A stretch of DNA of 64,000 bases from Thermoproteota archaeon (GTDB taxonomy: Archaea; Thermoproteota; Methanomethylicia; Methanomethylicales; Methanomethylicaceae), in NCBI GenBank assembly GCA_020832905.1, contig JAJHRG010000001.1, positions 64,809 to 128,808 on the forward strand, given 5' to 3'. Position numbers and translations under genes: made by a program. The notes under the pieces were generated by a model. That model had not been told where the DNA came from. It did not search any database and saw only the letters and a list, made by a program, of their open reading frames with translations. Positions 3,674 through 32,566 of this stretch are shown in pieces (position 1 is the stretch's first letter; the number at the start of each line of letters is the position of its first letter).

Positions 3674-3813
3674 GTGGTCCCGCCCGCCGGATTTGAACCA
3701 GCGACCACCCGGTTTATGCCCAGCTGGCACAGATTCATCTTAATGCCATTTGGCAATATCATCTGTGCGACAATGGTCTACAGCCGGGCGCTCTACCGCT
3801 GAGCTAGGGCGGG
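3674..3813 (-). tRNA. tRNA-Tyr (anticodon GUA) with an intron of about 64 nt at the canonical 37/38 position; CCA is encoded
   Basis: Read on the minus strand: CCCGCCC-UA-GCUC-AGCGGUA-GAGC-G-CCCGG-CUGUAG[intron]A-CCGGG-UGGUC-GCUGG-UUCAAAU-CCGGC-GGGCGGG-A-CCA. The C1:G72 pair is the archaeal/eukaryal Tyr identity element. A further 3 nt on each side (GGU/ACC) can also pair. Confidence 0.8.
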
Positions 3814-13389: not shown

Positions 13390-13911
13390 TTGCTATTCCA
13401 TTATGCAAATAATATGTCAATTGAAAGCTTTAAATTAGCAGATAATGAAATACTAATAATGAAAGGAAAAAATGGATTATTAGGAATTGCAAAAGCTAAA
13501 GGTATAAATAAAGTTATTATAGAAAGTTTTGAAAAAGAAATGGAATTAATAGTTAATCCAGAAGATATTATTGTAGTTTCATGCTTTAGTAATAATGAAA
13601 AATTTATAAATGGAATAGCATGTATGATTTATTTAATTAAAGAAATAGGAATACCTCTTATTTCATTTCCTAAGGAAAGAAAAACTTCATTTATTCCTAA
13701 TATGCTAATAGCCATAGGAAAAAACATTATCTTAACTACAAAAATAGAACCAGGAAAAGAAAAACAAAATATGTTATGTGTCACTAAAGATTTTGATAAT
13801 ATGGAAGTTATCTCAAATAATGAAGAAATAGTAATAAAAGGAATTGATAAAAAGAAGGTAAATATTTTTAAAATTAATCAACCTCACATACAATATATGA
13901 ATAATTACTAA
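13390..13911 (+). CDS. Hypothetical protein
   Basis: 173-aa ORF with no recognisable motif. The start is uncertain (MSIESFKL at 13414 is possible). A 46-codon ORF (13281-13421) in another frame overlaps its 5' end. Confidence 0.35.
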   Translation: MLFHYANNMSIESFKLADNEILIMKGKNGLLGIAKAKGINKVIIESFEKEMELIVNPEDIIVVSCFSNNEKFINGIACMIYLIKEIGIPLISFPKERKTSFIPNMLIAIGKNIILTTKIEPGKEKQNMLCVTKDFDNMEVISNNEEIVIKGIDKKKVNIFKINQPHIQYMNNY

Positions 13912-14506
13912 ATCTATATTTCTTCCATGATAATATTCTTATTGGACTTTTATATAATGGACATTCTAAAACTAATGTATGATATTCACCATTTTCTCCT
14001 AATGGATCAATATTTTTATTCTTACTAAGAAAATAATCTAAAGTATCTTTTGATAATATAAAACCAAGCCATTCTTCACTTAAAATATTATTATCAATAC
14101 ATATTATCATCGCTTTAAATTTCTCCTCCATCATTTCTTTTAATATATCTAATGAAGACCTATGAAAAATTGGTTCAATAATAGATATATTAAGCTTTTT
14201 ACATATATTCTCTAACCATTTAACATGATCTTCTATAAAAACATCTCCACCAACTAGTATATCAATATTCATTCTATTGAGAAAATTAATAAAATTATCT
14301 ATACCATTTTTTAAATTAATAATAAATAATTGTTTATTCATTTTTTCTGCAATTTTTTTAAGAGCATTTATATTTTCTAAATGACCACTTGGTCTATTAA
14401 AAGTGGTAATAAATGTAATTAAATAGTTAATAGGAATACCTAATTTTTCTACTAAGTAAATAGAATATAGTGAATCTTTTCCAGAGAAAAGAGCAGCTCC
14501 TTTCAT
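13874..14506 (-). CDS. PP-loop ATP pyrophosphatase of the MJ0570 family (diphthine-ammonia ligase Dph6-like), paralogue 1
   Basis: N-terminal FSGKDS PP-loop and the family signature GENGEYHTLVLECP. Confidence 0.7.
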   Translation of the reverse strand: MKGAALFSGKDSLYSIYLVEKLGIPINYLITFITTFNRPSGHLENINALKKIAEKMNKQLFIINLKNGIDNFINFLNRMNIDILVGGDVFIEDHVKWLENICKKLNISIIEPIFHRSSLDILKEMMEEKFKAMIICIDNNILSEEWLGFILSKDTLDYFLSKNKNIDPLGENGEYHTLVLECPLYKSPIRILSWKKYRFSNYSYIVCEVD

Positions 14507-14596
14507 TTTTATTCATAAAATAGTTAAAATTAATAAAATAAAAAATTTTGGAAAAAATAATTAGAATGTTTGTATAATTATTAAATGGGGTTAAAA

Positions 14597-15235
14597 ATGT
14601 CTGAAATAATTGTCAAATGGTTAGGACATGCAAGTTTTCAAATAAAAACAGATAATAAAATAATCTATATTGATCCATATGAAGGAGAATATGAAGAAAA
14701 AGCAGATATTATACTAGTTACTCATTCACATTATGATCATTGTGATACTTCAAAAATTAAAAAAATAACAAAAAAAGAAACAGTAATAATTGCACCTGAA
14801 GAATGTGCAAAGAAAATTAATGCAAAATCAATAAAGCCAGGAGAAAAAATGACAATTAATGGAATAATCATTCAAGCAGTTCATGCATATAATGTTAGAC
14901 GTTTTAGATCTCCAGGAGTTCCATTTCATCCAAAGGGATTTGGTGTTGGTTACTTAATAACTATAGGAGATAAAACAATTTATCATGCAGGAGATACTGA
15001 TTTTATTCCTGAAATGAAAGAACTAAAGAATATTACACTAGCTTTACTTCCAAGTGGAGGTACATATACAATGGACAATCCAGAAGCTGCTGAAGCTACT
15101 ATAACAATTAATCCAAAAATTGTAATTCCAATGCATAGATGGGATACAAATCCAGAAGAATTTAAGAAGAAAGTAGAAGAAAAATCAAACATAAAAGTTG
15201 TAATACTTAATCCTGGTGAAGTCTATAAGCTATAA
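14597..15235 (+). CDS. Metallo-beta-lactamase-fold hydrolase
   Basis: LVTHSHYDHCD zinc-binding motif and a downstream HAGDT. About 210 aa. Confidence 0.75.
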   Translation: MSEIIVKWLGHASFQIKTDNKIIYIDPYEGEYEEKADIILVTHSHYDHCDTSKIKKITKKETVIIAPEECAKKINAKSIKPGEKMTINGIIIQAVHAYNVRRFRSPGVPFHPKGFGVGYLITIGDKTIYHAGDTDFIPEMKELKNITLALLPSGGTYTMDNPEAAEATITINPKIVIPMHRWDTNPEEFKKKVEEKSNIKVVILNPGEVYKL

Positions 15236-15864
15236 TGAGTGAAATAAAGTTTTATAGTGAAAAAACAGGAAAGTACTATAGACTTATAAGTACAAGTACT
15301 TGGCCATATCTAGAAATTTCAGGAATAAGAATGCATAGAGCAGATGATGTTGATCCAAAAACAGATGCTGAATTAAAAATAAAAGCACTTGGAAGAGTTT
15401 ATGGAAGAGTTTTAGACTGTTGTACAGGTTTAGGGTATACTGCTATTTTATTAGCAAATAAAAAAAGTGTAAATGAAGTAATAACAATAGAAAAAGATGA
15501 AAATGTAATAATGATTGCTAAACAAAATCCATATTCAAAACCTCTTTTTGAAAATAGTAAAATAAAGCTTATAATTGGAGATGCTTTTGAAGAAATAAAA
15601 AAATTTGAAGATAAATATTTTAATTTTATAGTACATGATCCACCTAGAATAAGTATTGCTCATGAGCTTTACTCTTTAGAATTTTATAAACAACTTTATA
15701 GAGTATTAAAAGACAATGGTAGAATATTACATTATGTTGGAAGACCAGGAATAAGACAAGGTAAGAATTACATAAAAGGAATAATTAATAGATTAAGAAT
15801 GGCAGGATTTAGAAGAATTAAAATGATTGATTATGCTTTAAGTCTATTAATTGAAAAAATATAA
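15235..15864 (+). CDS. Class I SAM-dependent methyltransferase (DPPR motif; N6-adenine/N2-guanine-type)
   Basis: Motif I VLDCCTGLGYTA and motif IV HDPPR. Confidence 0.6.
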   Translation: MSEIKFYSEKTGKYYRLISTSTWPYLEISGIRMHRADDVDPKTDAELKIKALGRVYGRVLDCCTGLGYTAILLANKKSVNEVITIEKDENVIMIAKQNPYSKPLFENSKIKLIIGDAFEEIKKFEDKYFNFIVHDPPRISIAHELYSLEFYKQLYRVLKDNGRILHYVGRPGIRQGKNYIKGIINRLRMAGFRRIKMIDYALSLLIEKI

Positions 15865-15890: not shown

Positions 15891-16373
15891 ATGTCAGAAA
15901 ATATAAAAAGAAGAGCAAAAATTCTTACAGAAATTGCTTTATTTTCTGCAATAAGTGGAATAGGTGCTATGATTCCTATACCAAGTCCAATTGGTTCTAT
16001 AGCTTTAGATTCTTTTCCAGGATATTTTATGGCACTTTGGAGAGGAAAAATAGAAGGAGCATTAGTATGTGCTATTGGACATTTACTTTCTGCAATAAGA
16101 GCTGGATTTCCATTAGGATTACTTCATATAGCCATAGCCTTACTTATGGCTATTGTTGGATTAACTATAGCAATTATTAAAAATAAATATGGAATTACTA
16201 TGGGTCTTATAGGTGGTATAATTTTAAATACAATAGGAGTAATAATTGTAGTACCAGTTTTAGGATGGGGAGCAATTATAGTAATTACACCAATATTATT
16301 CTTAGCTTCTTTAATAAATGCAATCATAGCAGGAATAATATATAAAATATTAGTGAAGATTTATGTTAAGTAA
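15891..16373 (+). CDS. Small polytopic membrane protein resembling an ECF-transporter substrate-capture (S) component
   Basis: 160 aa with about 5 TM helices, Gly/Ile-rich, no soluble domain. It lies head-to-tail with a PurM-like gene, next to the cobamide salvage cluster. Confidence 0.45.
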   Translation: MSENIKRRAKILTEIALFSAISGIGAMIPIPSPIGSIALDSFPGYFMALWRGKIEGALVCAIGHLLSAIRAGFPLGLLHIAIALLMAIVGLTIAIIKNKYGITMGLIGGIILNTIGVIIVVPVLGWGAIIVITPILFLASLINAIIAGIIYKILVKIYVK

Positions 16374-17100
16374 CTTCAGAGATATATTAATAAAAAAATT
16401 AGGAAATTATTTTTTAATTATAAGTTGTGATTCTTCAGGAGCAATTGGTCCAAAGAATGGAGATTTTCTAAAAGTTAATGGGGAAATTTTAGGAAAATAT
16501 ATGGTAAGAAGTGCTTTAATGGAAATTTTATCTGTAAAAGCAAAACCAATATGTATATCTTGTGGATTAGGTGTAGAGCCAGAACCAACTGGAGAAAGTA
16601 TAATTAAAGGAATAAAAGAAGAAATGATAAAAGTAGGACTTAATCCTAATGAAGATCTTGTTATAAGTACTGAAAAGAATTTTCCAACTAATCAAACAGG
16701 ACTTGGTATTACTGCTATAGGATTTGCTTCAAAAAAAGATTTACTTATTGGAAAATCAAAAAAGAATGATTTAATTATTAGTATTGGTTTACCTTCAGTT
16801 GGAAAAGAAGTTTTAGAAAATAAAGATAGTATTGTAGATATTGATGATGTATTAACTCTATTGTCTATGGATTTTATTCATGGAATTATTCCAGTTGGTT
16901 CTAAAGGAATATTGTATGAGGCAAACATATTAGCAAGAGAATCAAATCTTAAATTAAGACTTTTTAATGATATAAAATTAGATTTAAAGAAATCTGCTGG
17001 ACCAAGCACTGTTATACTTGTTACATTAAGAGAAAAATATATTGATATTATTAAAAGTAAGATTAAGAAACCAATACATAAAATAGCAACTTTAATTTAG
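16363..17100 (+). CDS. AIR-synthase-related (PurM/ThiL-like) protein; possible small-molecule kinase
   Basis: 245 aa with glycine-rich segments (CDSSGAIGPKNG, GLGVEPEPTGE) that recall the PurM-like fold. No confident family assignment. Confidence 0.35.
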   Translation: MLSNFRDILIKKLGNYFLIISCDSSGAIGPKNGDFLKVNGEILGKYMVRSALMEILSVKAKPICISCGLGVEPEPTGESIIKGIKEEMIKVGLNPNEDLVISTEKNFPTNQTGLGITAIGFASKKDLLIGKSKKNDLIISIGLPSVGKEVLENKDSIVDIDDVLTLLSMDFIHGIIPVGSKGILYEANILARESNLKLRLFNDIKLDLKKSAGPSTVILVTLREKYIDIIKSKIKKPIHKIATLI

Positions 17101-17720
17101 TTTTTTATTTTTAATTTCTCCATATATTCTCTTGCCTTTAAATATTCATCAAAAGTATTTATATTAAAAACTACTTCAAAATTATTCATAATTAAGTATA
17201 TTTCCTCAATATATTTTTCATCAATTTTTGTCTTATCAATAATATTTATACCACATGGAACAAATTCTTCATTATTAATTTTTATTATATAAGTTGGTAT
17301 TAAATTATAGCTTAATAAGTTCTTTAAAGGTGTTATTACAGTAAGAGAAGGTTTTTTCTCTTCTATGTATTTATTAATAATGAAATTAATAATTTCTGAT
17401 GTGATAAATGGAAGATCTGCTGATATTACAATAAAATATTTACCATTAGAATTCTTTATTGCAAACTTCATATCCTCATGATAATCTCTTCCACTTGTTT
17501 CTAATATGTTAATTCCCTTAATTGATTTTAGATAATTTTTTGTATTTACAGTATTAGGAGAAACAGTTACAATGATCTTATCTATAAATGAAGAATTTTT
17601 TACTGCATTTATTACTCTTTCAATTAAAGTTATTCCTCCTAATTTTAATAATGGTTTTTCAATTTTAATATTCATTCTTGAACTTTTTCCACCAGCCATT
17701 ATAATTGCAGTAAATTTCAT
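17097..17720 (-). CDS. cobY: MobA-like NTP transferase; candidate adenosylcobinamide-phosphate guanylyltransferase (archaeal CobY)
   Basis: N-terminal AIIMAGGKSSRM and EKPLLKLGG, the nucleotidyltransferase signature. First gene of the salvage operon. Confidence 0.55.
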   Translation of the reverse strand: MKFTAIIMAGGKSSRMNIKIEKPLLKLGGITLIERVINAVKNSSFIDKIIVTVSPNTVNTKNYLKSIKGINILETSGRDYHEDMKFAIKNSNGKYFIVISADLPFITSEIINFIINKYIEEKKPSLTVITPLKNLLSYNLIPTYIIKINNEEFVPCGINIIDKTKIDEKYIEEIYLIMNNFEVVFNINTFDEYLKAREYMEKLKIKN

Positions 17721-17721
17721 T

Positions 17722-18453
17722 TTAAAACCCCATTAATAATAATAGTAATAAACAAATTATTCTTGAAAATTCATTTGTACAACCAAGCATATCTCCACTA
17801 ATACAATTAAAAATCTTATGTAAAATATTAGTCCAAATTACTGAAAATAATATAATTGAAATAAAGATAATAAAGACTTTAGGATTAATAATTATAATAA
17901 CTAATGGTAATAATGAGCCAAGAACTATATTTCTATATTTTTTCTCCTTAAATTTTACTATAAAGATTTTTCCTATACCAAATTCACATGGTTTTCCTAT
18001 AAAGCTAACTAATAAAATTGATAATTTTGCAAATGTTTCAGCAATTATTAGAGAAATAAGAATATTTTTTATTAGTGAAATTAAGATAAAACTCATAGAT
18101 AATACTGCATATAGCAAAAAGAAACCACCAATACCATGATGTTTATCATGTAATATTTTTAGTTTTTCATTTTTACTTCCTCTAAACATTATTGCATCAC
18201 CTAAATCTAGTACACCATCTAAATGATGTAAACCTGTAATTATTAATAAACAAAAAAGTGTAAGTAATCCTGCTAATAACTTTGGAAAGAATATAAATAA
18301 AATAGTACCAAATAAACCACTAATAGTACCAATTATTGCTCCAACTAAAGGAAAGAAGTATGCATAATATGCAATTTCTTCTATATTACTACTATTAACT
18401 GGAATTATTGTTAAAAAGGAAATAACTGAAATAAATCCCTTTAATATTTTCAT
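17722..18453 (-). CDS. cobS: Adenosylcobinamide-GDP ribazoletransferase (cobalamin synthase)
   Basis: 243 aa polytopic membrane protein. The N-terminus FISVISFLTIIPV and the overall hydrophobicity pattern are typical of CobS. Confidence 0.65.
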   Translation of the reverse strand: MKILKGFISVISFLTIIPVNSSNIEEIAYYAYFFPLVGAIIGTISGLFGTILFIFFPKLLAGLLTLFCLLIITGLHHLDGVLDLGDAIMFRGSKNEKLKILHDKHHGIGGFFLLYAVLSMSFILISLIKNILISLIIAETFAKLSILLVSFIGKPCEFGIGKIFIVKFKEKKYRNIVLGSLLPLVIIIINPKVFIIFISIILFSVIWTNILHKIFNCISGDMLGCTNEFSRIICLLLLLLMGF

Positions 18454-19568
18454 TTTTTTCTTTCCTCAATCATATAAGAGTACATTTTACTCGATACTCC
18501 TGCTAATAATCCACCTATAACATCATCAATAAAAGGAGGTAAATTCTTTAAAATACCTGGTTTCTTTCTATCAAATCTATAAAATTCAAAAAGTCCATTA
18601 TATCCTGCAATATACATTGCAATAGAAATTCCTAAAATTTCATCAGCAACTAAATTTACAGGATCTTTTTTGTAATTCTCAGCACTCATATTAGGAATTA
18701 ATCCTCTTTCTCCATCTTCATTCAGTCTAAGACCTGCTATTACTAATGAGCTTACATTTATATCATCCATTACTTCTAATAAAATTCTTTTGAAAATTTC
18801 TTTAGCTTCTTCTTTTGAATAATTAGGATGTGGTACATAAATTTCCATAGCAGTTGAAATTAAATCTTCAAGTAGTATACCACGTTCTTTTAATCTTAAT
18901 AAGAGTTTTCTTTCAGTTTTTATATTATTGCATATTAGTGCATTATTTAAAGCATCTTCAACACATGAAGCAATTAACCATCCTAATTCAGTTGCACTAC
19001 CTGCATATTCTATAGCATTTCCTTTTCCTAGAGATGCTATAGCTAAAGCATCTGATGATGTACCAGTTGCTTGTTCATAACTTATAAAACTTCTTATATC
19101 AAAAGATGAAAGAACTTTACATTTAGCTTCTGTGATTGTTGTAATAGCATTAACCATACAACTTTCTGTCATTTCTCTATCAACAATAACAATAATATTA
19201 ATAGTACCAATATTAGGAATTTTAGTTTTTCTCATTATATTCCAATCTGTTATTGATAATGCATTTGAAATTCCTGCAGTAACAATTGCTAATACTTTTA
19301 TATTAGAAGATTCTTTTTTTGCAATTCCTGCTTTCATAAGATCTGCTCCAGTCATTAAGCATATAGCATTACTATCTACATTTTTAGATTTATAATATGC
19401 AATAGGATCATAATAGAAATCTTCTGGTATCCATAAATTTATTATCTTATTAGAAAATCTTAATCCTCCATTTATTGGAGCTGAGCTTAATACTTTAATT
19501 GGTTTTTTACTTTCAATAATAATATATTCCTTACTTATACTTACTTCTATATCATCAAAAAATATCAT
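18450..19568 (-). CDS. cbiZ: Fusion protein: adenosylcobinamide amidohydrolase (CbiZ) domain plus a C-terminal PgpA/CobZ-like (alpha-ribazole-phosphate phosphatase) domain
   Basis: The N-terminal 250 aa are CbiZ-like. The C-terminal 120 aa end in PPFIDDVIGGLLAGV, which matches the DDxxAG signature of the PgpA/CobZ family. Confidence 0.55.
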   Translation of the reverse strand: MIFFDDIEVSISKEYIIIESKKPIKVLSSAPINGGLRFSNKIINLWIPEDFYYDPIAYYKSKNVDSNAICLMTGADLMKAGIAKKESSNIKVLAIVTAGISNALSITDWNIMRKTKIPNIGTINIIVIVDREMTESCMVNAITTITEAKCKVLSSFDIRSFISYEQATGTSSDALAIASLGKGNAIEYAGSATELGWLIASCVEDALNNALICNNIKTERKLLLRLKERGILLEDLISTAMEIYVPHPNYSKEEAKEIFKRILLEVMDDINVSSLVIAGLRLNEDGERGLIPNMSAENYKKDPVNLVADEILGISIAMYIAGYNGLFEFYRFDRKKPGILKNLPPFIDDVIGGLLAGVSSKMYSYMIEERKK

Positions 19569-20455
19569 AATATCACCTCTAATAGTGAAAAAATAATAAT
19601 AGAAATGATAGCAGAAATAGTAAATATTTTTAAAGCATCTTTAATTTTCTCTAATGATGGTAATTCTTTTCCTCCTTCAATATAATATTCATTAGGTTTT
19701 CTAAGCCATATATTTAATGCTCCAGCCATTGATGCCATAGGCCATCCTGCATTTTTACTTTTAGTAAAAGAATGAAATCTTATAGTTGTAGTAATAGAAT
19801 TTTTCCAATTCTTCCTTAATATAAAAGCAGAAATAGTAAATAATAAAAAGCTAATTCTAGCAGGAATATAATTTGCTAAGGTATCTAATTTTGCAGAAAA
19901 CCAACCAAATTTAATATAACGTTCATTTTTATATCCAACCATTGAATCTAATGTATTTATAACTCTATATGCAACTGCACCTGGAAGACCAAAAATTACA
20001 TAATAAAATATAGGAGATAAAAATCCATCAACAAATCCTTCTGCAATTGTTTCAATTGTAGCTGATGCAATATGAGGTTTATCTAATGTTTTTGTATCTC
20101 TTCTTACAACTAATGATAAAAATCTTCTTGATAACTCTATATCTGTATTCATATATTTCATTATTGGAATAACATGTTTAAACATACTATTAAATGCAAA
20201 AGTCATTTTCAATATTAAAACAGATAAAATAAATTCTAACCACCATATGTTAATTAATTTTATTAAAAATGTAAAAGATGTAAATAAAATAATTGAAGAT
20301 ACTGCAAGTAAAGTACCTGCTAATCTTTCATTTTTTATTTTTCTAAAATAATTCTCCATTTTTTCTATAAATTTTCCAATCCAAACTGTAAGATGAAAAT
20401 AATTTGGAGGCTCTCCAAATATTAAATCAATTAAAAAAGAAATAATTAATATCAA
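19565..20455 (-). CDS. cbiB: Adenosylcobinamide-phosphate synthase (CbiB/CobD membrane protein)
   Basis: N-terminal LIDLIFGEPPNYFHLTVWIGKFI is the HPV-x-WIG-like CbiB signature. Polytopic membrane protein. Confidence 0.8.
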   Translation of the reverse strand: MILIISFLIDLIFGEPPNYFHLTVWIGKFIEKMENYFRKIKNERLAGTLLAVSSIILFTSFTFLIKLINIWWLEFILSVLILKMTFAFNSMFKHVIPIMKYMNTDIELSRRFLSLVVRRDTKTLDKPHIASATIETIAEGFVDGFLSPIFYYVIFGLPGAVAYRVINTLDSMVGYKNERYIKFGWFSAKLDTLANYIPARISFLLFTISAFILRKNWKNSITTTIRFHSFTKSKNAGWPMASMAGALNIWLRKPNEYYIEGGKELPSLEKIKDALKIFTISAIISIIIFSLLEVIL

Positions 20456-21819
20456 GGAGGAATCACTTCCAATACTTCTTTTCTTTTTTTTAGAATTTCT
20501 TCAGGATCTACTTTTTTAGCATCAATATCTACTAGTTTTTTAATTAATAAATTTACAACATCTTTTCTATGAATCCATATACAATCAGTACATGACCATA
20601 CTAATCTACCATTCTCTCTTTCTATGAATTTTCCTCCAGTAATATTATCTAGACATGGATAAAAATGACAAAAACAAAAACTACAATCTTCAACTTTTAA
20701 ATGACATTTCTTTTCAATACATATTGGATTATTTGGATAGAGTTTTTTCATTGAATAAATTATATTCTTTAAAGCTTTAATTAAAACAAGATTTTCTTCT
20801 TCTTTTCTTACTGCTATTCTAATGTAAGGTTCATTTAGTCCTCTTACTGAACTTAATTCTCTAATTAAAATAGCATATGATAATAATCTCCACTTCAAAT
20901 TTTTTGGTGAAAAACCACTTTTATTTATATTAATCATAAAGAAGTTTGTACTTGATGGAATTGGAACTAAACCATTAATTGATTTTATATTATTGAAAAG
21001 TTTTTCTTTTTCATTAAATATTTTCTTTTTTGAATATTTTAAAAAATCTAAGTCTTCTAAAGCAGATATCGCAGCTAATTCTTCTAAAGTACCTATTCTC
21101 CAGCTTATAGCAGTTTGATTAAATTTTTCAGCAAGACTTGAATGACATAAAGCATAGCCAACTCTCAGACCAGGAAAACCAAATGCTTTTGTAAGAGATC
21201 TTAAAACAAAAAGATTCCTAAAATCTAGTGTTAATGAGGCAAATGTTTTACTATTTTCAGAAAGCTCATAATATGCTTCATCAACTATTACAAAAATTCC
21301 TTTCTTTTCTGCAATTTCAATAATTTCAATAATTTTTTCATAATCTAAAATTTCACCAGTAGGATTATTTGGATTACAAAGAATAACACCACTAATTTCA
21401 TTATTTTTTACTATATCTAAAATTTTTTCTAAATTTATTTTGATTCCAATTGGTTCAATAAAAATAGCTTTTAATCCTAATGCTTTTACTACTACTTCAT
21501 ATTCACTAAATGTTGGTGTAGGAATTACTACTGATTTCTTAAAAAATCTTGTAAGTATAGAATGAATGAGTTCTGTTACTCCACATCCAACTATAATATT
21601 ATCACAAGGAAGATTAACATAATTAGCTATTGCTTTTCTTAATTTAGAATAATTTTTATCAGGATAATATTTTATAAGATGTAATGATGACTTAATTACT
21701 TCAATAACCTTAGGTGGAGGACCATATGGATTTATATTTGAACTAAAATCAATTATATTATTAGGAGATATTCCAATTTTATTAGAAATCTCAAAAACAT
21801 CTCCACCATGATCTATCAT
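20452..21819 (-). CDS. cobD: L-threonine-O-3-phosphate decarboxylase (class I/II aminotransferase fold) with a Cys-rich C-terminal extension of about 95 aa
   Basis: The N-terminus MIDHGGDVFE resembles the HGG start of Salmonella CobD. The PLP-fold body carries the LTKAFGFPGLRVGY lysine region. The C-terminal tail carries 9 Cys (CIEKKCH...CSFCFCHFYPC...SCTDCIW). Confidence 0.7.
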   Translation of the reverse strand: MIDHGGDVFEISNKIGISPNNIIDFSSNINPYGPPPKVIEVIKSSLHLIKYYPDKNYSKLRKAIANYVNLPCDNIIVGCGVTELIHSILTRFFKKSVVIPTPTFSEYEVVVKALGLKAIFIEPIGIKINLEKILDIVKNNEISGVILCNPNNPTGEILDYEKIIEIIEIAEKKGIFVIVDEAYYELSENSKTFASLTLDFRNLFVLRSLTKAFGFPGLRVGYALCHSSLAEKFNQTAISWRIGTLEELAAISALEDLDFLKYSKKKIFNEKEKLFNNIKSINGLVPIPSSTNFFMININKSGFSPKNLKWRLLSYAILIRELSSVRGLNEPYIRIAVRKEEENLVLIKALKNIIYSMKKLYPNNPICIEKKCHLKVEDCSFCFCHFYPCLDNITGGKFIERENGRLVWSCTDCIWIHRKDVVNLLIKKLVDIDAKKVDPEEILKKRKEVLEVIPP

Positions 21820-22475
21820 TTTCTTATCACCATAAATTCTCTTATTTTTAACATATAACGATTCCATTTTTCTAAGATCTCATAATCTTTTACAATTATT
21901 CTTCCTTTCATTATTGGAGCATCTAGTACTAAAGTATGATATTCTCCATATTCTCCACAAAAATCAATAGAAGAAAATTCCTTTATTACATCTTTATCAA
22001 TTATTTTTCCAATTAAATCTTTACTAAGTTTATTAGTATCTAAATCACATATAAGTGCTTTAATTCCATAATTTATTTCATTAATTAAAATATCATAAGA
22101 ATTACCCCATAATGGAGCATAAATATTAATATTATTTTCTTTACATAAATTTTCATACCAATTTAATTGTTCTATTGAACTTATATTCCCAACTATTATA
22201 CAATTAATATTAAGTTTTGAAAAAAGATTACTTAATTGTTTATATTCTTTTCCTTTTTCTAAATGTAATACATAAAGTGGAATTCCTATTAAATTAGCAA
22301 TAGTTTTTACAATATGAATATTAATTTCATGTATATTAGGTCTTGGAAAATCATGAGTATTAAATAAGAGATAATTAACTGATAATCCATTTTCCTTAGC
22401 TTTTATAATAGAGAAGATAGAATCCTTTCCACCAGAGAAAAATGCCAAAACTTTTAAATCTTTTTTATATTTCAT
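21816..22475 (-). CDS. PP-loop ATP pyrophosphatase of the MJ0570 family (Dph6-like), paralogue 2
   Basis: FFSGGKDS PP-loop and GEYGEYHTLVLDAP signature. Embedded in the cobamide salvage operon. Confidence 0.7.
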   Translation of the reverse strand: MKYKKDLKVLAFFSGGKDSIFSIIKAKENGLSVNYLLFNTHDFPRPNIHEINIHIVKTIANLIGIPLYVLHLEKGKEYKQLSNLFSKLNINCIIVGNISSIEQLNWYENLCKENNINIYAPLWGNSYDILINEINYGIKALICDLDTNKLSKDLIGKIIDKDVIKEFSSIDFCGEYGEYHTLVLDAPIMKGRIIVKDYEILEKWNRYMLKIREFMVIRK

Positions 22476-22481
22476 TTTTCT

Positions 22482-23423
22482 TCACTTAATATCTTTATTA
22501 CCTAAGTAAAAACCACAATATTTACAGCGTATACCATTAACTGGAGATTTACAATATGGACATGATTTTTCATTTTCTTTTGCTTTTGGAGGTAAACCAA
22601 AAATTTCTTTATACAATTTAAAAAAGTAAATTTGTTCTCTATCCCAAAATCTTATATTTTCTTTTAAAGCTTCTTTTTCAATTTCTTCTACTTCTTCCTT
22701 ATTAAGCATTTTTAATAAAATACTTGATATATTTGTACTTCCACTTCCAATTTCTATAGGTTGTTTATCTCGCCATGCTATTTCAGAAAAACCAAAATTA
22801 TCTAATATACATCTTAAAATCCATTTTCCATATACTTTTCCATTTTTCTTATTTATTTTCCATTCATAAGGTATCTTTTTTGCAAATTCAATTATTTCTT
22901 CATTAAGAAAAGGCTGAATGATTTCTATTCCTAATGCTTTTCCAATTATTCCTGATGAGAAATACCAATTTTTTATTAAAAATTCTGTATATTTACTTAA
23001 TTCTTCTCTATTCATACTTATCATGTAATCATAACCTGCAAAAAGCTCATCTCCTCCATCACCAGTAATTACTTTTCTTATTCCTTCTTCTTTAAATTCT
23101 TTTAATGCAATATATATAGAGATATCATTTCTTATTTCAATATGATCAAAAGTTTTAGTTATTTTTATAATATCTCTTATAGCATTAATGGCTTCTTCTA
23201 ATCCATATTTTCTAATCTTATGTTTAATTCCTAATTTTTTAGAAACAATTACTGAATACTTTTCATCATCTCCTTTATTAAATATAGCAGTAATACTATA
23301 AATTTTAAAATATTTTGATGTAATAATTGCTAATAAGCTACTGTCTATACCACCTGAAAGTAATATTCCCTCAGGATTATAACTTCTTATTACTTTAGAT
23401 AATAAATTAACTAATTCAAACAT
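22482..23423 (-). CDS. Asparagine-synthetase-like synthetase domain protein (PP-loop, no glutaminase domain) with a C-terminal zinc ribbon
   Basis: LLSGGIDSS PP-loop and DGGDELFAGY match the AsnB C-domain motifs. C-terminal CPYCKSPVNGIRCKYCG. Confidence 0.65.
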   Translation of the reverse strand: MFELVNLLSKVIRSYNPEGILLSGGIDSSLLAIITSKYFKIYSITAIFNKGDDEKYSVIVSKKLGIKHKIRKYGLEEAINAIRDIIKITKTFDHIEIRNDISIYIALKEFKEEGIRKVITGDGGDELFAGYDYMISMNREELSKYTEFLIKNWYFSSGIIGKALGIEIIQPFLNEEIIEFAKKIPYEWKINKKNGKVYGKWILRCILDNFGFSEIAWRDKQPIEIGSGSTNISSILLKMLNKEEVEEIEKEALKENIRFWDREQIYFFKLYKEIFGLPPKAKENEKSCPYCKSPVNGIRCKYCGFYLGNKDIK

Positions 23424-24222
23424 AATAATTTTCCTCTTTTTTATTATTTCTTTTTGGTATTATAATTGGATAATTTTCAAACCATTTTATAGCAGCATTA
23501 ATTCCATATACTTCATAAATAAGTTTTTCATTAATTATATCTCTTGGTCTTCCCATTGCTACTATTTTACCATTATTTAAAACAATAATTTTATCACAAT
23601 ATGATGATACTAAATCAATTTCATGAGCAGTTATTATTACAATTTTATTTTTTCTACTTAAAGATTTTAATATCTCCATTACTTCAATTCTATATTTTAA
23701 ATCAAGATAAGCAATTGGCTCATCAAGTAAAATAATATCTGTTCTTTGTACAAGAGATTTAGCTATAAGAACTCTTCTTTGTTCACCACTACTTAAAGTA
23801 GTAAAATCTCTATCATAAAGATGATATACTTTAAGTAACTTAAGAAATTTTTCAGCAATTTTTATATCTTCTTCTTTTTCCCACCAAAAACTTTCTGTTC
23901 TATTTCTACAACCCATAAGAACAACTTCATAAACTTTCATATTAAATCCATTTGGCCAATTAGGAAGTAAAGCTGAAACAATTTTTGAATATTCACTATT
24001 AGTATACTCATTTATAGATTTTCCAAATACTATAATTCTTCCTTTTGGAATTATACTTCGTGCAATACATTTTAAAAGAGTAGTTTTTCCTGCACCATTT
24101 GGTCCAATAATTCCTAACATTTCTCCTTTATTTACTTCAAATTTTATATTCTCTAAAATTTTTGATGAATTAAAATAAACAGTTATTCCATCTACAATAA
24201 TTTCACATTTCATATTTACCAC
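23416..24222 (-). CDS. ABC transporter ATP-binding protein (BtuD/FepC-type, corrinoid/siderophore importer)
   Basis: Walker A GPNGAGKTTLL, signature LSSGEQRR, Walker B ILLDEP. Confidence 0.85.
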   Translation of the reverse strand: MVNMKCEIIVDGITVYFNSSKILENIKFEVNKGEMLGIIGPNGAGKTTLLKCIARSIIPKGRIIVFGKSINEYTNSEYSKIVSALLPNWPNGFNMKVYEVVLMGCRNRTESFWWEKEEDIKIAEKFLKLLKVYHLYDRDFTTLSSGEQRRVLIAKSLVQRTDIILLDEPIAYLDLKYRIEVMEILKSLSRKNKIVIITAHEIDLVSSYCDKIIVLNNGKIVAMGRPRDIINEKLIYEVYGINAAIKWFENYPIIIPKRNNKKEENYYV

Positions 24223-25219
24223 CCTTCTTCATTAAAAGATAAATAAAAAATGGTACACCTATCATAGATGTAATAGTACTAATTGGTATTTCACCAAATG
24301 GATTAATGTAACTTTTAACAATATTATCAGATACTAATAATAGAAATGAACCAGTAAGACCTCCTAAAGGTAATACAAATCGATTATCTGAAGAAATCAT
24401 TAATCTAATCATATGTGGAGCTACTAAACCTACAAATCCTATTATTCCACTAAAAGCTATACAAGAAGAAACACATAAACTTGAAATTAATAACATTAAA
24501 ATCCATAATCTTTTTGCATTTATTCCAAGTTGTAAAGCATGTTCTTCACCTAATAGTAGAATATTAAGATCTCTTGCATTAATAAGAAGAAAAATAGAAC
24601 AAAAAGCAACTATTGGAAATGTAATTATAACATTAGACCATTTTGATGTAGAAAAAGAGCCATAAATCCAATAGATTATTCCATGAGCTTTTTCTTGAGC
24701 TAATGTAATTATAAGTATAAGAATAGCATTTGCTAAAATACCAACTGCAATACCTGCAAGAATAAAACCAATAGGATCTGCTTTTGCTTTTTTTGCTAAA
24801 AATATTGTTAATAAAATTGAAGAAATACCTCCAAGAAATGCAAAAAAAGGAATAAAATGTATTGATATATTTGGTAGTAAAAATGCAATAGTTGCACCAA
24901 GAGCTGCACCAGAGGACATTCCTGTAATATAAGGATCTGCTAATGGATTTCTTGTTAAAGATTGAATAACACCACCAGAAATTCCAAGAGAAAAACCTGT
25001 AATCATAGTAAATAAAGCTCTTGGAAGTCTATAGTTAAATATAATAGTACTTATTGTTTTATTTTTCTCAGGATTAATCAAATTTTCAAAAACTTCCATT
25101 GGAGATAATAGAAAAGAACCTATCATTAATGAAAATAAAAATGATATAAAAAGAAGAATAGATAAAGAAGATGAATAAATTAATAGTTTTATTTTTCTTT
25201 GTTTTGCTAATCTTAGCAT
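24203..25219 (-). CDS. ABC transporter permease, FecCD/BtuC family
   Basis: 338 aa with about 9-10 TM helices. The Gly-rich region and overall profile match BtuC/FecCD. Confidence 0.8.
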   Translation of the reverse strand: MLRLAKQRKIKLLIYSSSLSILLFISFLFSLMIGSFLLSPMEVFENLINPEKNKTISTIIFNYRLPRALFTMITGFSLGISGGVIQSLTRNPLADPYITGMSSGAALGATIAFLLPNISIHFIPFFAFLGGISSILLTIFLAKKAKADPIGFILAGIAVGILANAILILIITLAQEKAHGIIYWIYGSFSTSKWSNVIITFPIVAFCSIFLLINARDLNILLLGEEHALQLGINAKRLWILMLLISSLCVSSCIAFSGIIGFVGLVAPHMIRLMISSDNRFVLPLGGLTGSFLLLVSDNIVKSYINPFGEIPISTITSMIGVPFFIYLLMKKGGKYEM

Positions 25220-25222
25220 TAA

Positions 25223-26317
25223 CTATCGCCTAATTATATTCTCATAATTGCTTATGAAGTTAGGAACTGTAATATTGAATAATTGTGGATGAATAATATA
25301 TGCTAGTAATATAGTTGCATCAGTAATTCTTGGACCAGGTCTTTCTATTGCATTTGCTGCATTTTCTGTTAAAATATAAACTCTATTATTCTTTACAGCA
25401 TTAATTTCACTAAAACCTGGTATATTTTTTATATAATTTAATAATTCCTCAGGAGGTTTTGTAAGTGCCATTGAACTAAATATAATTACATCTGGATTTC
25501 TAGAAATAATTTCTTCAGGATTTGTAATAAACCATCCATTTTTATCATTAAATATATTAATTCCACCTGCTATTGATATTAATTCATTAGCATATGTTCC
25601 ATTTCCTGTTGTCCATAAAGGATCTAACCATACTAAGTATAATACTTTCTGTTTGGAAACTTTAGAAGTTTTAGAAGTTATTTCATTTATAGTATTTTTT
25701 ATTTGATTAATTAGTTTTTCTCCTTCTTCTAACTTTAAGGTTATTTTTGATATTTTATATATGTTATTTATTATTTCTTCTATACTTGGTGATTCTAATG
25801 CAATAACTGTAAGTCCAAATCCTTCTAAAGTTGATACAAATTTCTTTTGTAAACTTGCATCAATAAATACAATATCTGGATTTAAAGAAGCAATTTTTTC
25901 ACAATTAAGAGTAGTAACTCCACCAACTTCAGCAATTAATCCTTTTTCTTTTAGCTCTAAAACTAATTTTGGATAATTTGAATATTTATCTACACCTACA
26001 ATTTTATCAGAAAGATTAAGAGCAAATAACATTTCTGTTATTGAAGGAGTACATGATACTATACGCATAGGTTCTGAATTAATAGTAACAGTTCTTCCAA
26101 GAGCATCTTTTATTATTATTGGATAATAAAAGCTTTTGAATCTCTCTAATTCTTTTTTTGTAGAAGAAATTTCATCTATTAAGTTATTTAATTTATTGCC
26201 AAGAGAAGAAAGACTAAGATCTATATTGGAGATATTATTATTTATCGCAAAAATCATAGCAGTATTAATGACTCCTAATATTAGAGCAATAATAATTAAT
26301 GTAGATATGTATTTCAT
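25223..26317 (-). CDS. Periplasmic-type substrate-binding protein, class III (BtuF/FepB-like), membrane-anchored
   Basis: N-terminal signal/anchor. Bilobed SBP signatures (IVSCTPSITEMLFAL, VGVDKYS, PDIVF). Operon with the BtuC- and BtuD-like genes. Confidence 0.75.
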   Translation of the reverse strand: MKYISTLIIIALILGVINTAMIFAINNNISNIDLSLSSLGNKLNNLIDEISSTKKELERFKSFYYPIIIKDALGRTVTINSEPMRIVSCTPSITEMLFALNLSDKIVGVDKYSNYPKLVLELKEKGLIAEVGGVTTLNCEKIASLNPDIVFIDASLQKKFVSTLEGFGLTVIALESPSIEEIINNIYKISKITLKLEEGEKLINQIKNTINEITSKTSKVSKQKVLYLVWLDPLWTTGNGTYANELISIAGGINIFNDKNGWFITNPEEIISRNPDVIIFSSMALTKPPEELLNYIKNIPGFSEINAVKNNRVYILTENAANAIERPGPRITDATILLAYIIHPQLFNITVPNFISNYENIIRR

Positions 26318-27173: not shown

Positions 27174-28858
<1,685 letters not shown>

Positions 28859-28865
28859 ACGAATG

Positions 28866-28909
28866 GTTGTTATACCCCCAACTATACACATAAATTGGGT
28901 ATTGGGCCC
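28866..28909 (+). other. 3' strand of the 16S processing stem
   Basis: Reverse complement of 27112-27155 apart from a central bulge. Confidence 0.7.
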
Positions 28910-28993
28910 ATAATGCTAATTTTTATGCAACTGAGGAGTTCTTACTCCTCAGTGAAGGGCGTAGTAAGGTTTATAACCTTACGATGATCGCCA

Positions 28994-29040
28994 TGCATAG
29001 GTCTTAGTCCCTTAGCATCTACCAGATTTTGGAATACTGG
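28994..29040 (+). other. 5' strand of the 23S rRNA processing stem (pairs with 32121-32168)
   Basis: CAUGCAUAGGUCUUAGUCCCUUAGCAUCUACCAGAUUUUGGAAUACUGG is complementary to the sequence following the 23S 3' end. Confidence 0.7.
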
Positions 29041-29193
29041 GCCTGACACACAGACGCCGGTTGGTGGATGGCTCGGCTCAGGCGCCGACGAAGGGCGCGG
29101 CAAGCGGCGATATGCTCCGGGGAGGCGCATGCAGCCTTCGATCCGGAGATCCCCGAATGGGACTTCCTGCCATGGGTTAATAGCCCATGGCGC

Positions 29194-29233
29194 TCGGGAA
29201 AAATAACCGGTATTACCGGTTATTTTTCCCGAG
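29194..29233 (+). repeat. 40-nt perfect palindrome (AT-rich hairpin) inside 23S domain I
   Basis: CUCGGGAAAAAUAACCGGUAUUACCGGUUAUUUUUCCCGAG. Its centre is GGUAUUACC. Confidence 0.8.
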
Positions 29234-29288
29234 TGGGAACCCCCCGAACGGAAACATCCAAGTAGGGGGAGGAAAAGAAACCAAAAGG

Positions 29289-29331
<43 letters not shown>

Positions 29332-29560
29332 GAATCCCTTTGCGATAAGCAAAGGGAGATGTAGGGTTCGGACACCCCCGTTAAAACCCTTCCTAGGGAA
29401 GCCGAAGTGGCCTGGAAAGGCCCGCCGTAGAGGGTGATAGCCCCGTAGGCGTAACCTAGGGGGGTTTGGGGGTGTTCCAGAGTACCACGCCTTGGTTGTG
29501 GCGTGGGAAGGTGGGAGTTACTAACTCCCAAGGCTAAATACGTCCTGAGTCCGATAGCGA

Positions 29561-29594
<34 letters not shown>

Positions 29595-29810
29595 GAGAGG
29601 GGAGTGAAAAGAGCCTGAAACCAACCGGCTACGTAGTGACGTGGCACGAAAGGGATGATTTCTACCGAAGGAGCCCTCCGAGAGGAGGTAGTACGAGGTA
29701 GAAGGACCGGTGTCACGTCTTCCGTTTTGGAGCACGGCCCAGGGAGTTCACCGGAGTGGCGAGCCTAAGGGGATCAACCCCGTAGGCGTAGGGAAACCGA
29801 CAGCCCGCAT

Positions 29811-29843
29811 CCACATTAAGTGGGTATTACCCACTTAATGTGG
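29811..29843 (+). repeat. 33-nt perfect palindrome (AT-rich hairpin) inside the 23S
   Basis: CCACAUUAAGUGGGUAUUACCCACUUAAUGUGG. Its centre, GGUAUUACC, is the same as that of the hairpin at 29194. Confidence 0.8.
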
Positions 29844-30503
29844 AGAGGGGCGGGGTCCGACGAGGGCCCGAATAGTCACTCCGGTGATAACCCGAAACCG
29901 AGCGATCTAGGCCTGGGCAGGGTGAAGCCAGGCGAAAGCCTGGTGGAGGCCCGCAGGGGTTCTGACGTGCAATTCGTTCCTCTGACCCAGGCCTAGGGGC
30001 AAAAGACCAATCAAGCTCGGTGATAGCTGGTTCCCCCCGAAGTGGGTCGCAGCCCAGCCCGCCCGGAGGTTGCTGGCGGGGTAGAGCTACCAATTGAGGG
30101 TGCGTGGGCCGAAAGGCCCAGCCCCTCTTTTGAACTCCGAACCTGCCAGCTCCGTAGATGGGCGGAGACGGGTTCCACGGGAAAAGCCTGTGGGCCGAGA
30201 GGGGAACAACCCAGACCCGGGTTAAGGCCCCTAAATGCTGGCTTAGTGTTAAGCCAAAGGGCGTCCCGGATCTGAGACAGCTGGGAGGTAGGCTTAGAAG
30301 CAGCCATCCTTTAAAGAGTGCGTAACAGCTCACCAGCCGAGATCCGGGGCCCCGAAGATTTTCGGGGCTAAGCCAGCTGCCGAGACCCGGGGGTAGACCC
30401 CGTCTGGGGTCTGCCGGTAGGGGGGCGCTCCGGTTGGGCAGAAGCTGGGCCGAAAGGTCCAGTGGACCAACCGGAGGTGCGGATCCTGGGGGTAGTAACA
30501 GCA

Positions 30504-30536
<33 letters not shown>

Positions 30537-31882
30537 CAGGGTTCCTCGGCAACGGTCGTCGGCCGAGGGTCAGCCGGTCCCTAAGGCGGCACATAGCTTG
30601 TCGCCGCCGATGGGGAAACTGGTTAATATTCCAGTGCCTTGGAGATCAGATGCGCTAACTCCTTTGCCTCGGGATAGGCCGAGCAGAGCCGCCGCTCTGC
30701 CTAACCTATCTAAGCCCGGGGAGTACCGTAATGGTGAGAACCGGGCGAAGATAGGGATGGGCCGACCGTAAGGTCGGTTCGGCCGATTCCTGGGGCCCAT
30801 GAAAAGGGAGTTAGTAAGAGATCTCCAAGACCGTACCGAGAACCGACACAGGTGCCCTGGATGAGCAGTCTAAGGCGTGTCGGGAGCACCCCAGGTCAGG
30901 GAACTCGGCAAATTGGCCCCGTACCTTCGGTAGAAGGGGTGCCTGGGTCTCTGGGCGAAAGCCTGGAGACCTAGGTCGCAGTGACAAGGGGGAGGCGACT
31001 GTTTAATAAAAACATAGGTCCCCGCAAGCCCGTAAGGGTGTGTACGGGGGCTGAATCCTGGCCACTGGCGGTCCGTGAAACCCGGGTTCAACCGGGCGAA
31101 GCGCCGCCGAAGGCCGGGAGTAACTCTGACTCTCTTAAGGTAGCCAAATGCCTTGTCGGGTAAGTTCCGACGTGCATGAATGGATCAACGACCTCCCCAC
31201 TGTCCCGACCTGGGGCCCGGTGAAGCCACCTCTTGGTGAAAAGTCCAAGTACTTCCAACGGGGGGATAAGACCCCGTGGAGCTTTACTGCAGCCTGCCGC
31301 TGGGATACGGCCATGATTGCAGAGCGTAGGTGGGAGTTGATGAAGTAGCTCCTCCGGGGGCTATGGAGACGCCAATGTAACACCACCCTTTCATGGCTGT
31401 ATCCCTTACCAGGCGGAAGCCTGGGACAACGGTTGGTGGGCAGTTCGGCTGGGGCGGCACGCCCTTGAAAAGATATCAAGGGCGCCCAAAGGTCGGCTCA
31501 GGCGGGTCAGAACTCCGCCGTAGAGGGCAAGGCCAAAAGCCGGCCTGATTGGACCCTTAACAGTAAGGGGTCCAAAGGCGAAAGCCTGGCCTAGCGACCG
31601 CTCGTGTCCCTTTTAGTAGGGGCCGGGCATGACAGAAAAGCTACCCCGGGGATAACAGAGCCGTCGCGGGCGAGAGTTCACATCGACCCCGCGGTTTGCT
31701 ACCCAGATGTCGGCTCTTCCCATCCTGGGGGTGCAGCAGCCCCCAAGGGTGGGGCTGCCCGCCCATTAAAGGGGAACGTGAGTTGGGTTTAGACCGTCGT
31801 GAGACAGGTCGGACTCTCCCTGTTGGAAGTGCTGGCTGCCTGAGGGGAAGGTGCGCCCAGTACGAGAGGAACGGCGCGCCGC

Positions 31883-31914
<32 letters not shown>

Positions 31915-32120
31915 TCGCCGGGCAGCCACGCCGCACGGGTTAACCGCTGAAAGCATCTAAGCGGGAAACCCTCCCCGAGACCAGGCAGCCATTCCACTCC
32001 CATTTGGGAGTGGACGAGGGCTCCCGTAGAACACGGGGTTGATGGGGCGGGGGTGTAAGCACCAAGGCCGAAAGGCCGAGGTGTTCAGCCCGCCGCTCCC
32101 AATCGCCCGAGGTGCAGGTC

Positions 32121-32168
32121 CAGTATTCCAAAATCTGGATGAAACTAAGGGATTAAGACCTATGCATG
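32121..32168 (+). other. 3' strand of the 23S processing stem
   Basis: Reverse complement of 28994-29040. Confidence 0.7.
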
Positions 32169-32233: not shown

Positions 32234-32566
32234 GCCAGGAGTAAGCAGCGAGTTGGTGGGTAGCCGACGGGCCCCATATAGGGGCCTGAGGAAACTCCAC
32301 CCTCCACGTAGGACCGCAGCGCCGTGAGGCGCAGGGGGAGACCCCTGCTCTTGGCACAGAAACGAGACGTGCGGAAGTGGATGTCTATGATGTGAAGAGT
32401 TATCTCTTCACTGAGTATACTTCCGCTTTCGTTGAAACGGCCAAGCTGCGGGGAGAAAGGGCAAATAGGAACCGATGAGGCCTACGCGAGGTTCGGGTAG
32501 CCCGAATAGTCGAATGCTACCTAAAACAGAAGGTGGGTTACGGCCAACACGCTGCTTACTCCTGGC
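32234..32566 (+). ncRNA. rnpB: RNase P RNA (archaeal type A-like)
   Basis: GC-rich 333-nt structured RNA closed by a 17-bp terminal helix (GCCAGGAGUAAGCAGCG / CGCUGCUUACUCCUGGC). P4 strands: GAGGAAACUCCACCCUCC (with the conserved bulged U) and ACAGAAGGUGGGUUACGG, which covaries against the E. coli ACAGAACCCGGCUUA. There is also GGGCAAAUAGGAACC, a P11/12-like CAAAUAGG. Confidence 0.8.

Follow-up and report, generated by a model that had tools for sequence, protein, structure and literature searches.

The 64,000-nucleotide stretch of Thermoproteota DNA analyzed here (hereafter the window) carries a minus-strand unit of ten genes that runs from position 26,317 to 17,097 in the order btuF-btuC-btuD-AsnBL-DUF71-cobD-cbiB-cbiS(cbiZ+cobZ)-cobS-cobY (Table 1). 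The fourth and fifth genes of this cobamide salvage operon, which encode two PP-loop proteins, an AsnB-like protein (AsnBL) and a member of the PF01902 family (DUF71), are the subject of this report. The gene assignments, made by profile searches across the window, agree with independent gene calls. Adjacent genes overlap by 4–20 nt or lie 1–6 nt apart, and nowhere does a gap exceed 6 nt. The true start of cobD is probably Met17 (21,819), which gives an ATGA overlap of 4 nt with the DUF71 stop codon and is where the L163 gene call begins. Judging from this spacing, the AsnBL and DUF71 genes are almost certainly cotranscribed with the rest of the operon.

Cobamide salvage is treated as a closed set of steps, consisting of transport, CbiZ, CbiB/CobD, CobY or CobU, CobS and a phosphatase, and the pair lies amid the genes for these steps. 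Since all recognized salvage steps are already covered by the operon, the two proteins would be accessory to them. Most microbes that require B12 rely on salvage, including methylotrophic methanogens (such as the Methanomethylicia-type metagenome-assembled genome, MAG, studied here), organohalide respirers, and many sediment anaerobes.

Table 1. Genes of the cobamide salvage operon, and the second DUF71 copy, in the window
Feature	Position	Strand	Evidence
BtuF-like substrate-binding protein, first gene of the operon	25223..26317	-	PF01497, E 3e-38
BtuC-like permease	24203..25219	-	PF01032 FecCD (precomputed annotation); kept with BtuF and BtuD in related loci
BtuD-like ATP-binding cassette (ABC) ATPase, 8-nt overlap with AsnBL start	23416..24222	-	PF00005; corrinoid/heme ABC ATPase models
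AsnBL, 313 aa	22482..23423	-	PF00733 Asn_synthase, E 7e-35
DUF71-B12-type PP-loop ATP pyrophosphatase, copy 1, 219 aa	21816..22475	-	PF01902 Diphthami_syn_2, E 8e-43
CobD (L-threonine-phosphate decarboxylase) with C-terminal Cys-rich PF04071	20452..21867	-	TIGR01140, 280.6 bits (curated equivalog threshold of 290.55 just missed); PF04071, E 2.5e-16
CbiB (adenosylcobinamide-phosphate synthase)	19565..20455	-	PF03186, E 6e-87; TIGR00380, 253 bits
CbiS (CbiZ amidohydrolase and CobZ phosphatase fusion)	18450..19568	-	NF038002, 244 bits (cut-off of 250 just missed); PF01955 and PF04608
CobS	17722..18453	-	TIGR00317, 147 bits
CobY-type adenosylcobinamide-phosphate guanylyltransferase, last gene of the operon	17097..17720	-	TIGR00454, 127 bits; NF045495, 115 bits
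Second DUF71-B12-type paralog (PAB0415-like), 2.6 kb past the operon end	13874..14506	-	PF01902, E 3e-33

The two PP-loop proteins

A first-pass annotation of the window had placed two PP-loop genes inside a cobamide operon, between a btuD-like gene and cobD, and the coordinates, the strand, the flanking genes and all of the motifs that it quoted are present. It had described one product as a synthetase domain of the AsnB type that has a zinc ribbon but lacks a glutaminase domain, and this description is accurate: AsnBL corresponds to the entire C-terminal synthetase domain of AsnB, to which a CxxC...CxxC ribbon is added (CPYC...CKYC at its C-terminus), the Pfam search found no glutamine amidotransferase (GATase) domain, and only 22 residues precede the PP-loop. 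The PP-loop motif is LLSGGIDSS, and the position of AsnB E348 is occupied by D122 within the second motif, TGDGGDELFAGY. Members of the family are 300–330 aa long; SGGxDS, GDxxDELFAGY, K200 (the equivalent of AsnB K449) and the four cysteines are invariant over 118 homologs, and all 17 bacterial homologs examined have the zinc ribbon. An NCBI protein from a "Candidatus Verstraetearchaeota archaeon" MAG (Methanomethylicia) matches AsnBL with 100% identity. In the alignment, AsnB D384 corresponds to Ser156 and R387 to a variable position; these two residues are the aspartate ligands of AsnB and the human enzyme ASNS. The scores against the AsnB equivalog model NF006949 (141.3 bits, cut-off 499) and TIGR01536 (104.5 bits, cut-off 267) fall far below threshold.

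The AlphaFold2 model of AsnBL (pLDDT 95.8) has as its top Protein Data Bank (PDB) match the C-terminal domain of AsnB (1ct9, TMq 0.75), and further matches are human ASNS, carbapenam synthetase and beta-lactam synthetase. AsnBL thus shares with Escherichia coli AsnB and human ASNS the fold (TMq 0.72–0.75), the PP-loop, the E348-region motif and the K449 equivalent, and presumably, by analogy, their acyl-adenylate mechanism; it differs from them in having no N-terminal glutaminase, no conserved D384 and R387, an additional zinc ribbon, and a score of 141 bits against a cut-off of 499. Beta-lactam synthetase, carbapenam synthetase and the lasso-peptide cyclases, the first two of which supply the next-best structural matches, likewise use AsnB-type adenylation to make amide bonds without glutamine hydrolysis. 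These glutaminase-inactive homologs, whose substrates are small molecules or peptides, retain the N-terminal domain in degenerate form, whereas AsnBL has no such domain and stands in a corrinoid context. By its conserved motifs AsnBL is an active-looking adenylating enzyme other than asparagine synthetase.

The PF01902 protein is best understood against a published division of the DUF71/COG2102 family into Dph6 and a second subgroup, DUF71-B12, which contains all bacterial members and the second copies of archaea, P. furiosus PF0295 among them (de Crecy-Lagard et al. 2012, Biol Direct 7:32; PMC3541065). In that study, 75 of 102 DUF71-B12 members adjoin btuCDF and 18 of 102 adjoin cbiB, the diagnostic change is from EGG(E/D)xE188 in Dph6 to ENGE(F/Y)H188 in DUF71-B12, and a CbiZ-like or other role in pseudo-B12 salvage was cautiously proposed (PMC3541065). 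The B12 link of this subgroup has therefore been known as a prediction since 2012. Our search of the literature from 2013 onward for experimental work on DUF71-B12 found none, just citations and a table entry in a 2016 review that reads "function unknown."

The operon copy carries FFSGGKDS and GEYGEYHTLV. Where MJ0570 and PH1257 have GEGGEFET it has GEYGEYHT, so that a histidine replaces E188 of Dph6 in the alignment, and it scores 121.7 bits against Dph6_archaeal (TIGR03679), whose cut-off is 197.3. Its homologs drop sharply in score from the His type (at least 193 bits) to the Glu type (at most 109 bits), and the histidine is present in the best 120 profile matches and in every AsnBL-adjacent DUF71 protein whose motif region is visible. 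The first-pass annotation had called this an MJ0570/Dph6-family protein; the family was right, but by motif and score the protein is of the DUF71-B12 type and is not a Dph6 ortholog. It shares with Dph6, MJ0570 and PH1257 the Pfam family, about 30% identity and the ATP-binding residues, and differs from them in the E188-to-His change, the sub-threshold score, a context of B12 rather than translation genes, and membership in a subfamily also found in bacteria, which have no diphthamide. With DUF71-B12 (the NCBIfam PAB0415 family) both copies in the window share the PF01902 fold, the PP-loop, the GExGE[YF]H motif and clustering with btuFCD/cbiB. The operon copy reads EYGEYH where the subgroup consensus is ENGE[F/Y]H, a Tyr for Asn replacement at a position that varies across the loci surveyed.

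From the existence of a second paralog the first-pass annotation had concluded that one copy could serve diphthamide synthesis. The paralog exists, but its motif is GENGEYHT, its top NCBIfam match is PAB0415_fam (196 bits), and it reaches only 94.2 bits against Dph6_archaeal. A hidden Markov model (HMM) of AsnBL-adjacent DUF71 proteins does not separate it from MJ0570 (176 vs 178 bits); it is assigned to the DUF71-B12 type because of its histidine motif and its best NCBIfam match. A close relative (L101) has it at the same position. Since both copies are of the B12 type, neither can be assumed to make diphthamide, and as no third PF01902 copy lies within the 64-kb window, the actual Dph6 gene must lie outside it. 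AsnBL and DUF71-B12 each keep, as far as their sequences indicate, the catalytic apparatus of adenylate-forming PP-loop enzymes.

Linkage to cobamide genes, riboswitches and fused domains

An AsnBL profile scan of one genome per species gave at least 550 relatives, of which 80 loci were kept; neighboring open reading frames (ORFs) were labeled by BLAST with the proteins of the window operon, and cobamide genes were counted within 10 kb of the AsnBL relatives. Gene calling was crude (longest ORFs with BLAST labels), and the counts are accordingly approximate. A reverse scan with a DUF71-B12 profile against metagenomes gave another 80 loci. Cobamide genes (DUF71-B12, btuFC, cbiB, cobD, cobS, cbiZ, cobY, cobT or cobU) lie near AsnBL in 32 of the 80 species genomes, spread over Thermoproteota, Bathyarchaeia, Hadarchaeota, Acidilobus, Dehalococcoidia, Desulfobacterota, Nitrospirota, Omnitrophota and Clostridia. 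The first-pass annotation had proposed such a neighborhood survey, and it shows a linkage that is shared by many archaeal and bacterial phyla and is not a peculiarity of this genome. The ten-gene order is identical in the loci L001 and L002; over all loci DUF71-B12 is directly downstream of AsnBL in 28 of 97 cases, and cobD is directly upstream of it in six. Bacterial neighbors include CobT, CobU, CobC, CobA and TonB-dependent receptors. B12-linked loci are interleaved across the AsnBL tree, except for one clade of Nitrososphaeria (ammonia oxidizers), and AsnBL loci without B12 neighbors showed no alternative theme, their neighbors being alcohol dehydrogenase, TauE, GatB, cysteinyl-tRNA synthetase, enoyl-CoA hydratase, radical S-adenosylmethionine (SAM) proteins, fructose-bisphosphatase and Ham1. 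From the other side, AsnBL adjoins DUF71-B12 in 17 of the 80 metagenome DUF71-B12 loci; over the same 80 loci, many of them on short contigs, btuF is present in 29, cobS in 26, cobU in 23 and cobT in 19.

A cobalamin riboswitch (RF00174) lies upstream of the AsnBL operon on the same strand in 13 loci (L015, L018, L024, L029, L030, L032, L036, L039, L054, L099, L108, L118 and L123), all of bacterial type (bacterial MAGs or riboswitch-bearing metagenome contigs); in L029 it is directly 5′ of the AsnBL-DUF71 pair.

Domain fusions were sought in part through an AsnBL-profile HMM search over 1.84 billion representatives, which gave 963 matches at E ≤ 1e-30. In an Omnitrophota locus (L020, 4962–6398, plus strand) DUF71-B12 is fused in frame to a BtuF-like domain (PF01497) directly after AsnBL and is followed by a separate btuF gene, which implies that the BtuF fold is used here to bind corrinoids in the cytoplasm. 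CobY is fused to AsnBL in P0278 and in P0357; to the cluster of P0278 belongs RLF22728.1, a Thermoprotei MAG protein whose gene has cobS directly upstream. A 1484-aa eukaryote-like protein (P0403) combines a BtuF-like domain with AsnBL. In the oomycetes Aphanomyces cochlioides (KAG9405926.1, P0352 cluster) and A. euteiches an N-terminal MMACHC/CblC-like domain precedes a complete AsnBL, zinc ribbon included, in one protein, and this architecture of about 600 aa is present in the P0352 cluster and in P0401; the only Pfam and PDB matches of the N-terminal domain are to MMACHC/CblC (E 4.5e-5, and E ~4e-4 over residues 13–154). These independent fusions point to a corrinoid substrate, and the eukaryotic one to complete cobalamin. 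The fungus Coemansia has an AsnBL-like domain as well (together with a NIF phosphatase domain), and so does the green alga Myrmecia bisecta; both cases may be gene-model fusions.

AsnBL and DUF71 were not found fused in frame in 160 loci or among the best 120 AsnBL matches. AsnB::DUF71 fusion proteins have been described from Methanohalophilus mahii and Methanosalsum zhilinae, where they carry a glutaminase domain and are the sole DUF71 copy of each genome (PMC3541065, Table S1). Their domain order matches the gene order AsnBL then DUF71-B12. With a single DUF71 copy per genome they are presumably Dph6 rather than the B12 type, and they were dropped as support for amidation by the B12 subgroup; all that they offer is a precedent for cooperation between the two domains.

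Both proteins very probably belong to cobamide salvage, and riboswitch control together with the domain fusions supports a corrinoid as their substrate class with similarly high confidence. The B12 link of AsnBL is as strong as that of DUF71-B12. The pairing with an AsnB-like gene is absent from the 2012 account of DUF71-B12 (PMC3541065), and no link between AsnBL and B12 was found in the open-access literature searched, although most subscription journals lie outside it and an earlier mention is possible; the sole match for an AsnB-like protein and B12 (PMC2667541) concerns a different gene context. The statement in the first-pass annotation that neither family had a role in corrinoid metabolism is therefore wrong for PF01902, which was tied to B12 salvage in 2012.

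Public annotation names the pair "asparagine synthase" and "diphthine--ammonia ligase," and they could accordingly be housekeeping enzymes of asparagine and diphthamide synthesis whose place in the operon is accidental. This is barely credible. Both proteins are far under the equivalog cut-offs, AsnBL has neither the glutaminase domain nor the aspartate ligands, the His188 signature is present, bacteria, which lack diphthamide, carry the pair under B12 riboswitches, and the linkage recurs across phyla; scores, motifs, riboswitches and cross-phylum linkage all contradict it. The two names are widespread mis-annotations, given even in bacteria without diphthamide.

Three loci raise the different idea that the pair modifies not a corrinoid but a cobalamin-handling peptide or protein, such as the "cobopeptide" whose production involves the radical SAM enzyme CbpB. 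Genes for CbpB (TIGR04163, 714 bits) and for a peptide of 35–38 aa separate AsnBL from DUF71-B12 in L019 and L155, and in L020 this peptide-CbpB unit follows cobD and stands just upstream of AsnBL. Dph6 itself modifies a protein, and some AsnB homologs cyclize peptides. CbpB is, on the other hand, found in only 3 of about 100 AsnBL loci and is absent from the window, and the fusion partners are corrinoid-binding or corrinoid-processing domains rather than peptide-recognition domains; we regard a peptide substrate as very improbable.

CbpB is a radical SAM/SPASM enzyme (TIGR04163, "rSAM_cobopep"), and the L019 and L155 clusters are riboswitch-type cobamide clusters. The peptide, with the conserved pattern ..RKKC.A.GTGLSHY.L..K, is encoded just upstream of CbpB on the plus strand (L019, 3273–3389; L155, 1914–2030; L020, 2349–2456). 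The peptide-CbpB unit looks like a RiPP-like system (ribosomally synthesized and post-translationally modified peptide) embedded in B12 salvage operons.

Possible reactions of the pair

Characterized members of the AsnB and Dph6 families form an acyl-adenylate, from which ammonia then yields the carboxamide. Amidation or re-amidation of corrin side chains would be the most economical chemistry for AsnBL and DUF71-B12, and we give it a probability of roughly 0.4. The pair would then be an accessory cobamide salvage module that acts directly on imported corrinoid: each enzyme would bind a corrinoid bearing a free side-chain carboxylate, ATP would adenylate that carboxylate with release of pyrophosphate, and free ammonia would displace AMP to leave the carboxamide, perhaps with some division of labor between the two proteins. 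Deamidated or incompletely amidated corrinoids would in this way be repaired or completed, and CbiZ/CbiB and the nucleotide-loop enzymes of the same operon could then process them properly. CbiA/CobB and CbiP/CobQ would be functional analogs if the pair does amidate corrin side chains, but they are known to be glutamine-dependent enzymes of de novo synthesis with an unrelated fold, and neither AsnBL nor the PF01902 protein has a Pfam or NCBIfam match to the CbiA/CobQ family. CbiA and CbiP were never found in the AsnBL and DUF71-B12 loci surveyed, so that there is no redundancy inside the cluster. The oomycete proteins occur where only complete cobalamin is known to be handled, a setting that favors side-chain chemistry, and the MMACHC-like fusion may mean that the same chemistry operates in eukaryotic B12 handling.

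Several points weigh against re-amidation. The literature yielded no evidence for deamidated corrinoids as physiological salvage substrates. AsnB homologs without a working glutaminase, such as beta-lactam synthetase, carbapenam synthetase and the lasso-peptide cyclases, use amines other than ammonia. AsnBL is missing from 63 of the 80 DUF71-B12 loci, so the two enzymes need not share a substrate. The ammonia-oxidizer clade of AsnBL has no B12 neighbors except methylmalonyl-CoA mutase in six loci, and the MMACHC-like label of the oomycete domain rests on E values of about 4e-4 to 5e-5. Finally, in DUF71-B12 loci of at least 8 kb, cbiB or cobD is present in 9 of 9 with AsnBL vs 4 of 27 without it (Fisher p = 7.6e-6), a coupling that re-amidation does not demand and that fits the step from cobyric acid to cobinamide-phosphate.

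That coupling is the chief argument for placing AsnBL at the CbiB step, where it would adenylate the f-propionate carboxylate of (adenosyl)cobyric acid for attack by aminopropanol phosphate (from CobD) or aminopropanol, either as a soluble, ATP-using partner of membrane-bound CbiB or as a parallel cobinamide(-phosphate) synthetase, with a separate role for DUF71-B12. The loci with cobD directly upstream of AsnBL agree with such a role, as do the cbiB-cobD-AsnBL trios in L023, L032, L103, L118, L123 and L155 and the fusion of AsnBL to CobY, a user of the CbiB product. Glutaminase-less AsnB homologs, among them structural neighbors of AsnBL, typically join carboxylates to amines, and the presence of AsnBL in ammonia-oxidizing archaea, which are reported to make cobalamin de novo, fits a step common to de novo synthesis and salvage. 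However, CbiB and CobD are considered genetically sufficient in model organisms that have no AsnBL, the oomycete fusion of an MMACHC-like domain to AsnBL occurs where nucleotide-loop assembly is not known, and the conserved AsnBL-DUF71 gene pair would be left unexplained. We consider this assignment unlikely, if less so than the one that follows.

The proposal of 2012 would have DUF71-B12 (with AsnBL as a helper) replace bacterial CbiZ, or open the salvage of pseudo-B12 or complete cobamides, by removing the aminopropanol-nucleotide loop to give cobyric acid. DUF71-B12 and CbiZ are strictly anticorrelated in bacterial genomes (PMC3541065), and in our metagenome set none of the 23 DUF71-B12 loci that contain CobU (which here stands for a bacterial origin) shows a CbiZ match, whereas most of the CobY-type (archaeal) loci do; the link to cbiB and cobD would also fit a cobyric acid product. 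Amide hydrolysis requires no ATP, however, and a PP-loop enzyme would have to run backwards; CbiZ, DUF71-B12 and AsnBL stand together in one operon in the window and in many archaeal loci; and DUF71-B12 is often in cobU-cobT-cobS clusters without nearby cbiB or cobD (23 of the 36 long loci). This role appears improbable.

Re-amidation thus remains the favored chemistry. More tentatively, AsnBL (in archaea, bacteria and B12-using eukaryotes) may be a corrinoid-processing enzyme not recognized before, and with DUF71-B12 may possibly constitute an ATP-dependent cofactor-repair system that re-amidates hydrolyzed corrin side chains. If so, B12 salvage and trafficking would include a new step, and an additional repair or activation of this kind would alter the range of environmental corrinoids that can be used.

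Other features of the window and of related loci

The PF04071 "zf-like" tail of CobD spans residues ~388–448 and resembles the bifunctional L-Thr kinase/decarboxylase CobD of Methanosarcina mazei; AsnBL-adjacent CobD proteins elsewhere occur both with and without it. In Nitrososphaeria and relatives (L074–L076 and L078–L080) AsnBL lies a few kb from methylmalonyl-CoA mutase (PF01642), and several of these genes adjoin an ABC ATPase. A small radical SAM protein (~250 aa, activase/MoaA-like) is encoded in L012, L019, L028, L034, L121, L126, L152 and L155; its gene occupies the btuF-btuC interval in five loci and the DUF71-btuF interval in L019 and L155, and in L034 it is present twice, next to DUF71. 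L012, L026, L121 and L123 encode an AhbD/NirJ-like radical SAM/SPASM protein.

Convergent with the end of the operon are two overlapping plus-strand genes, one for the S component of an energy-coupling factor (ECF) transporter (PF12822, 15891–16373) and one for a 245-aa protein (16363–17100) with a weak match to aminoimidazole ribonucleotide (AIR) synthase. The ECF S component, alone or with its 245-aa partner, also lies beside cobamide genes in L003, L026 and L101. The window operon has no cobT, and the two genes could be a CblT/CblS-like pair for alpha-ribazole salvage; NCBIfam gave no match to support this identity, in favor of which are only the Pfam match of the S component and the recurrence beside cobamide genes. 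Between the second DUF71-B12 copy and the ECF gene lie genes for a metallo-beta-lactamase-fold hydrolase (PF13483) and a SAM-dependent methyltransferase (14585–15864, plus strand), an arrangement kept only in the close relative L101.

The window has a GC content of about 26%, and its 16S-23S rRNA operon (27175–32122, plus strand) one of about 60%, a difference that points to a thermophile. Directly downstream of the rRNA operon lies an archaeal RNase P RNA gene (32248–32552, plus strand), and a tRNA match on the minus strand (3678–3813) spans 136 nt and thus probably contains an intron.

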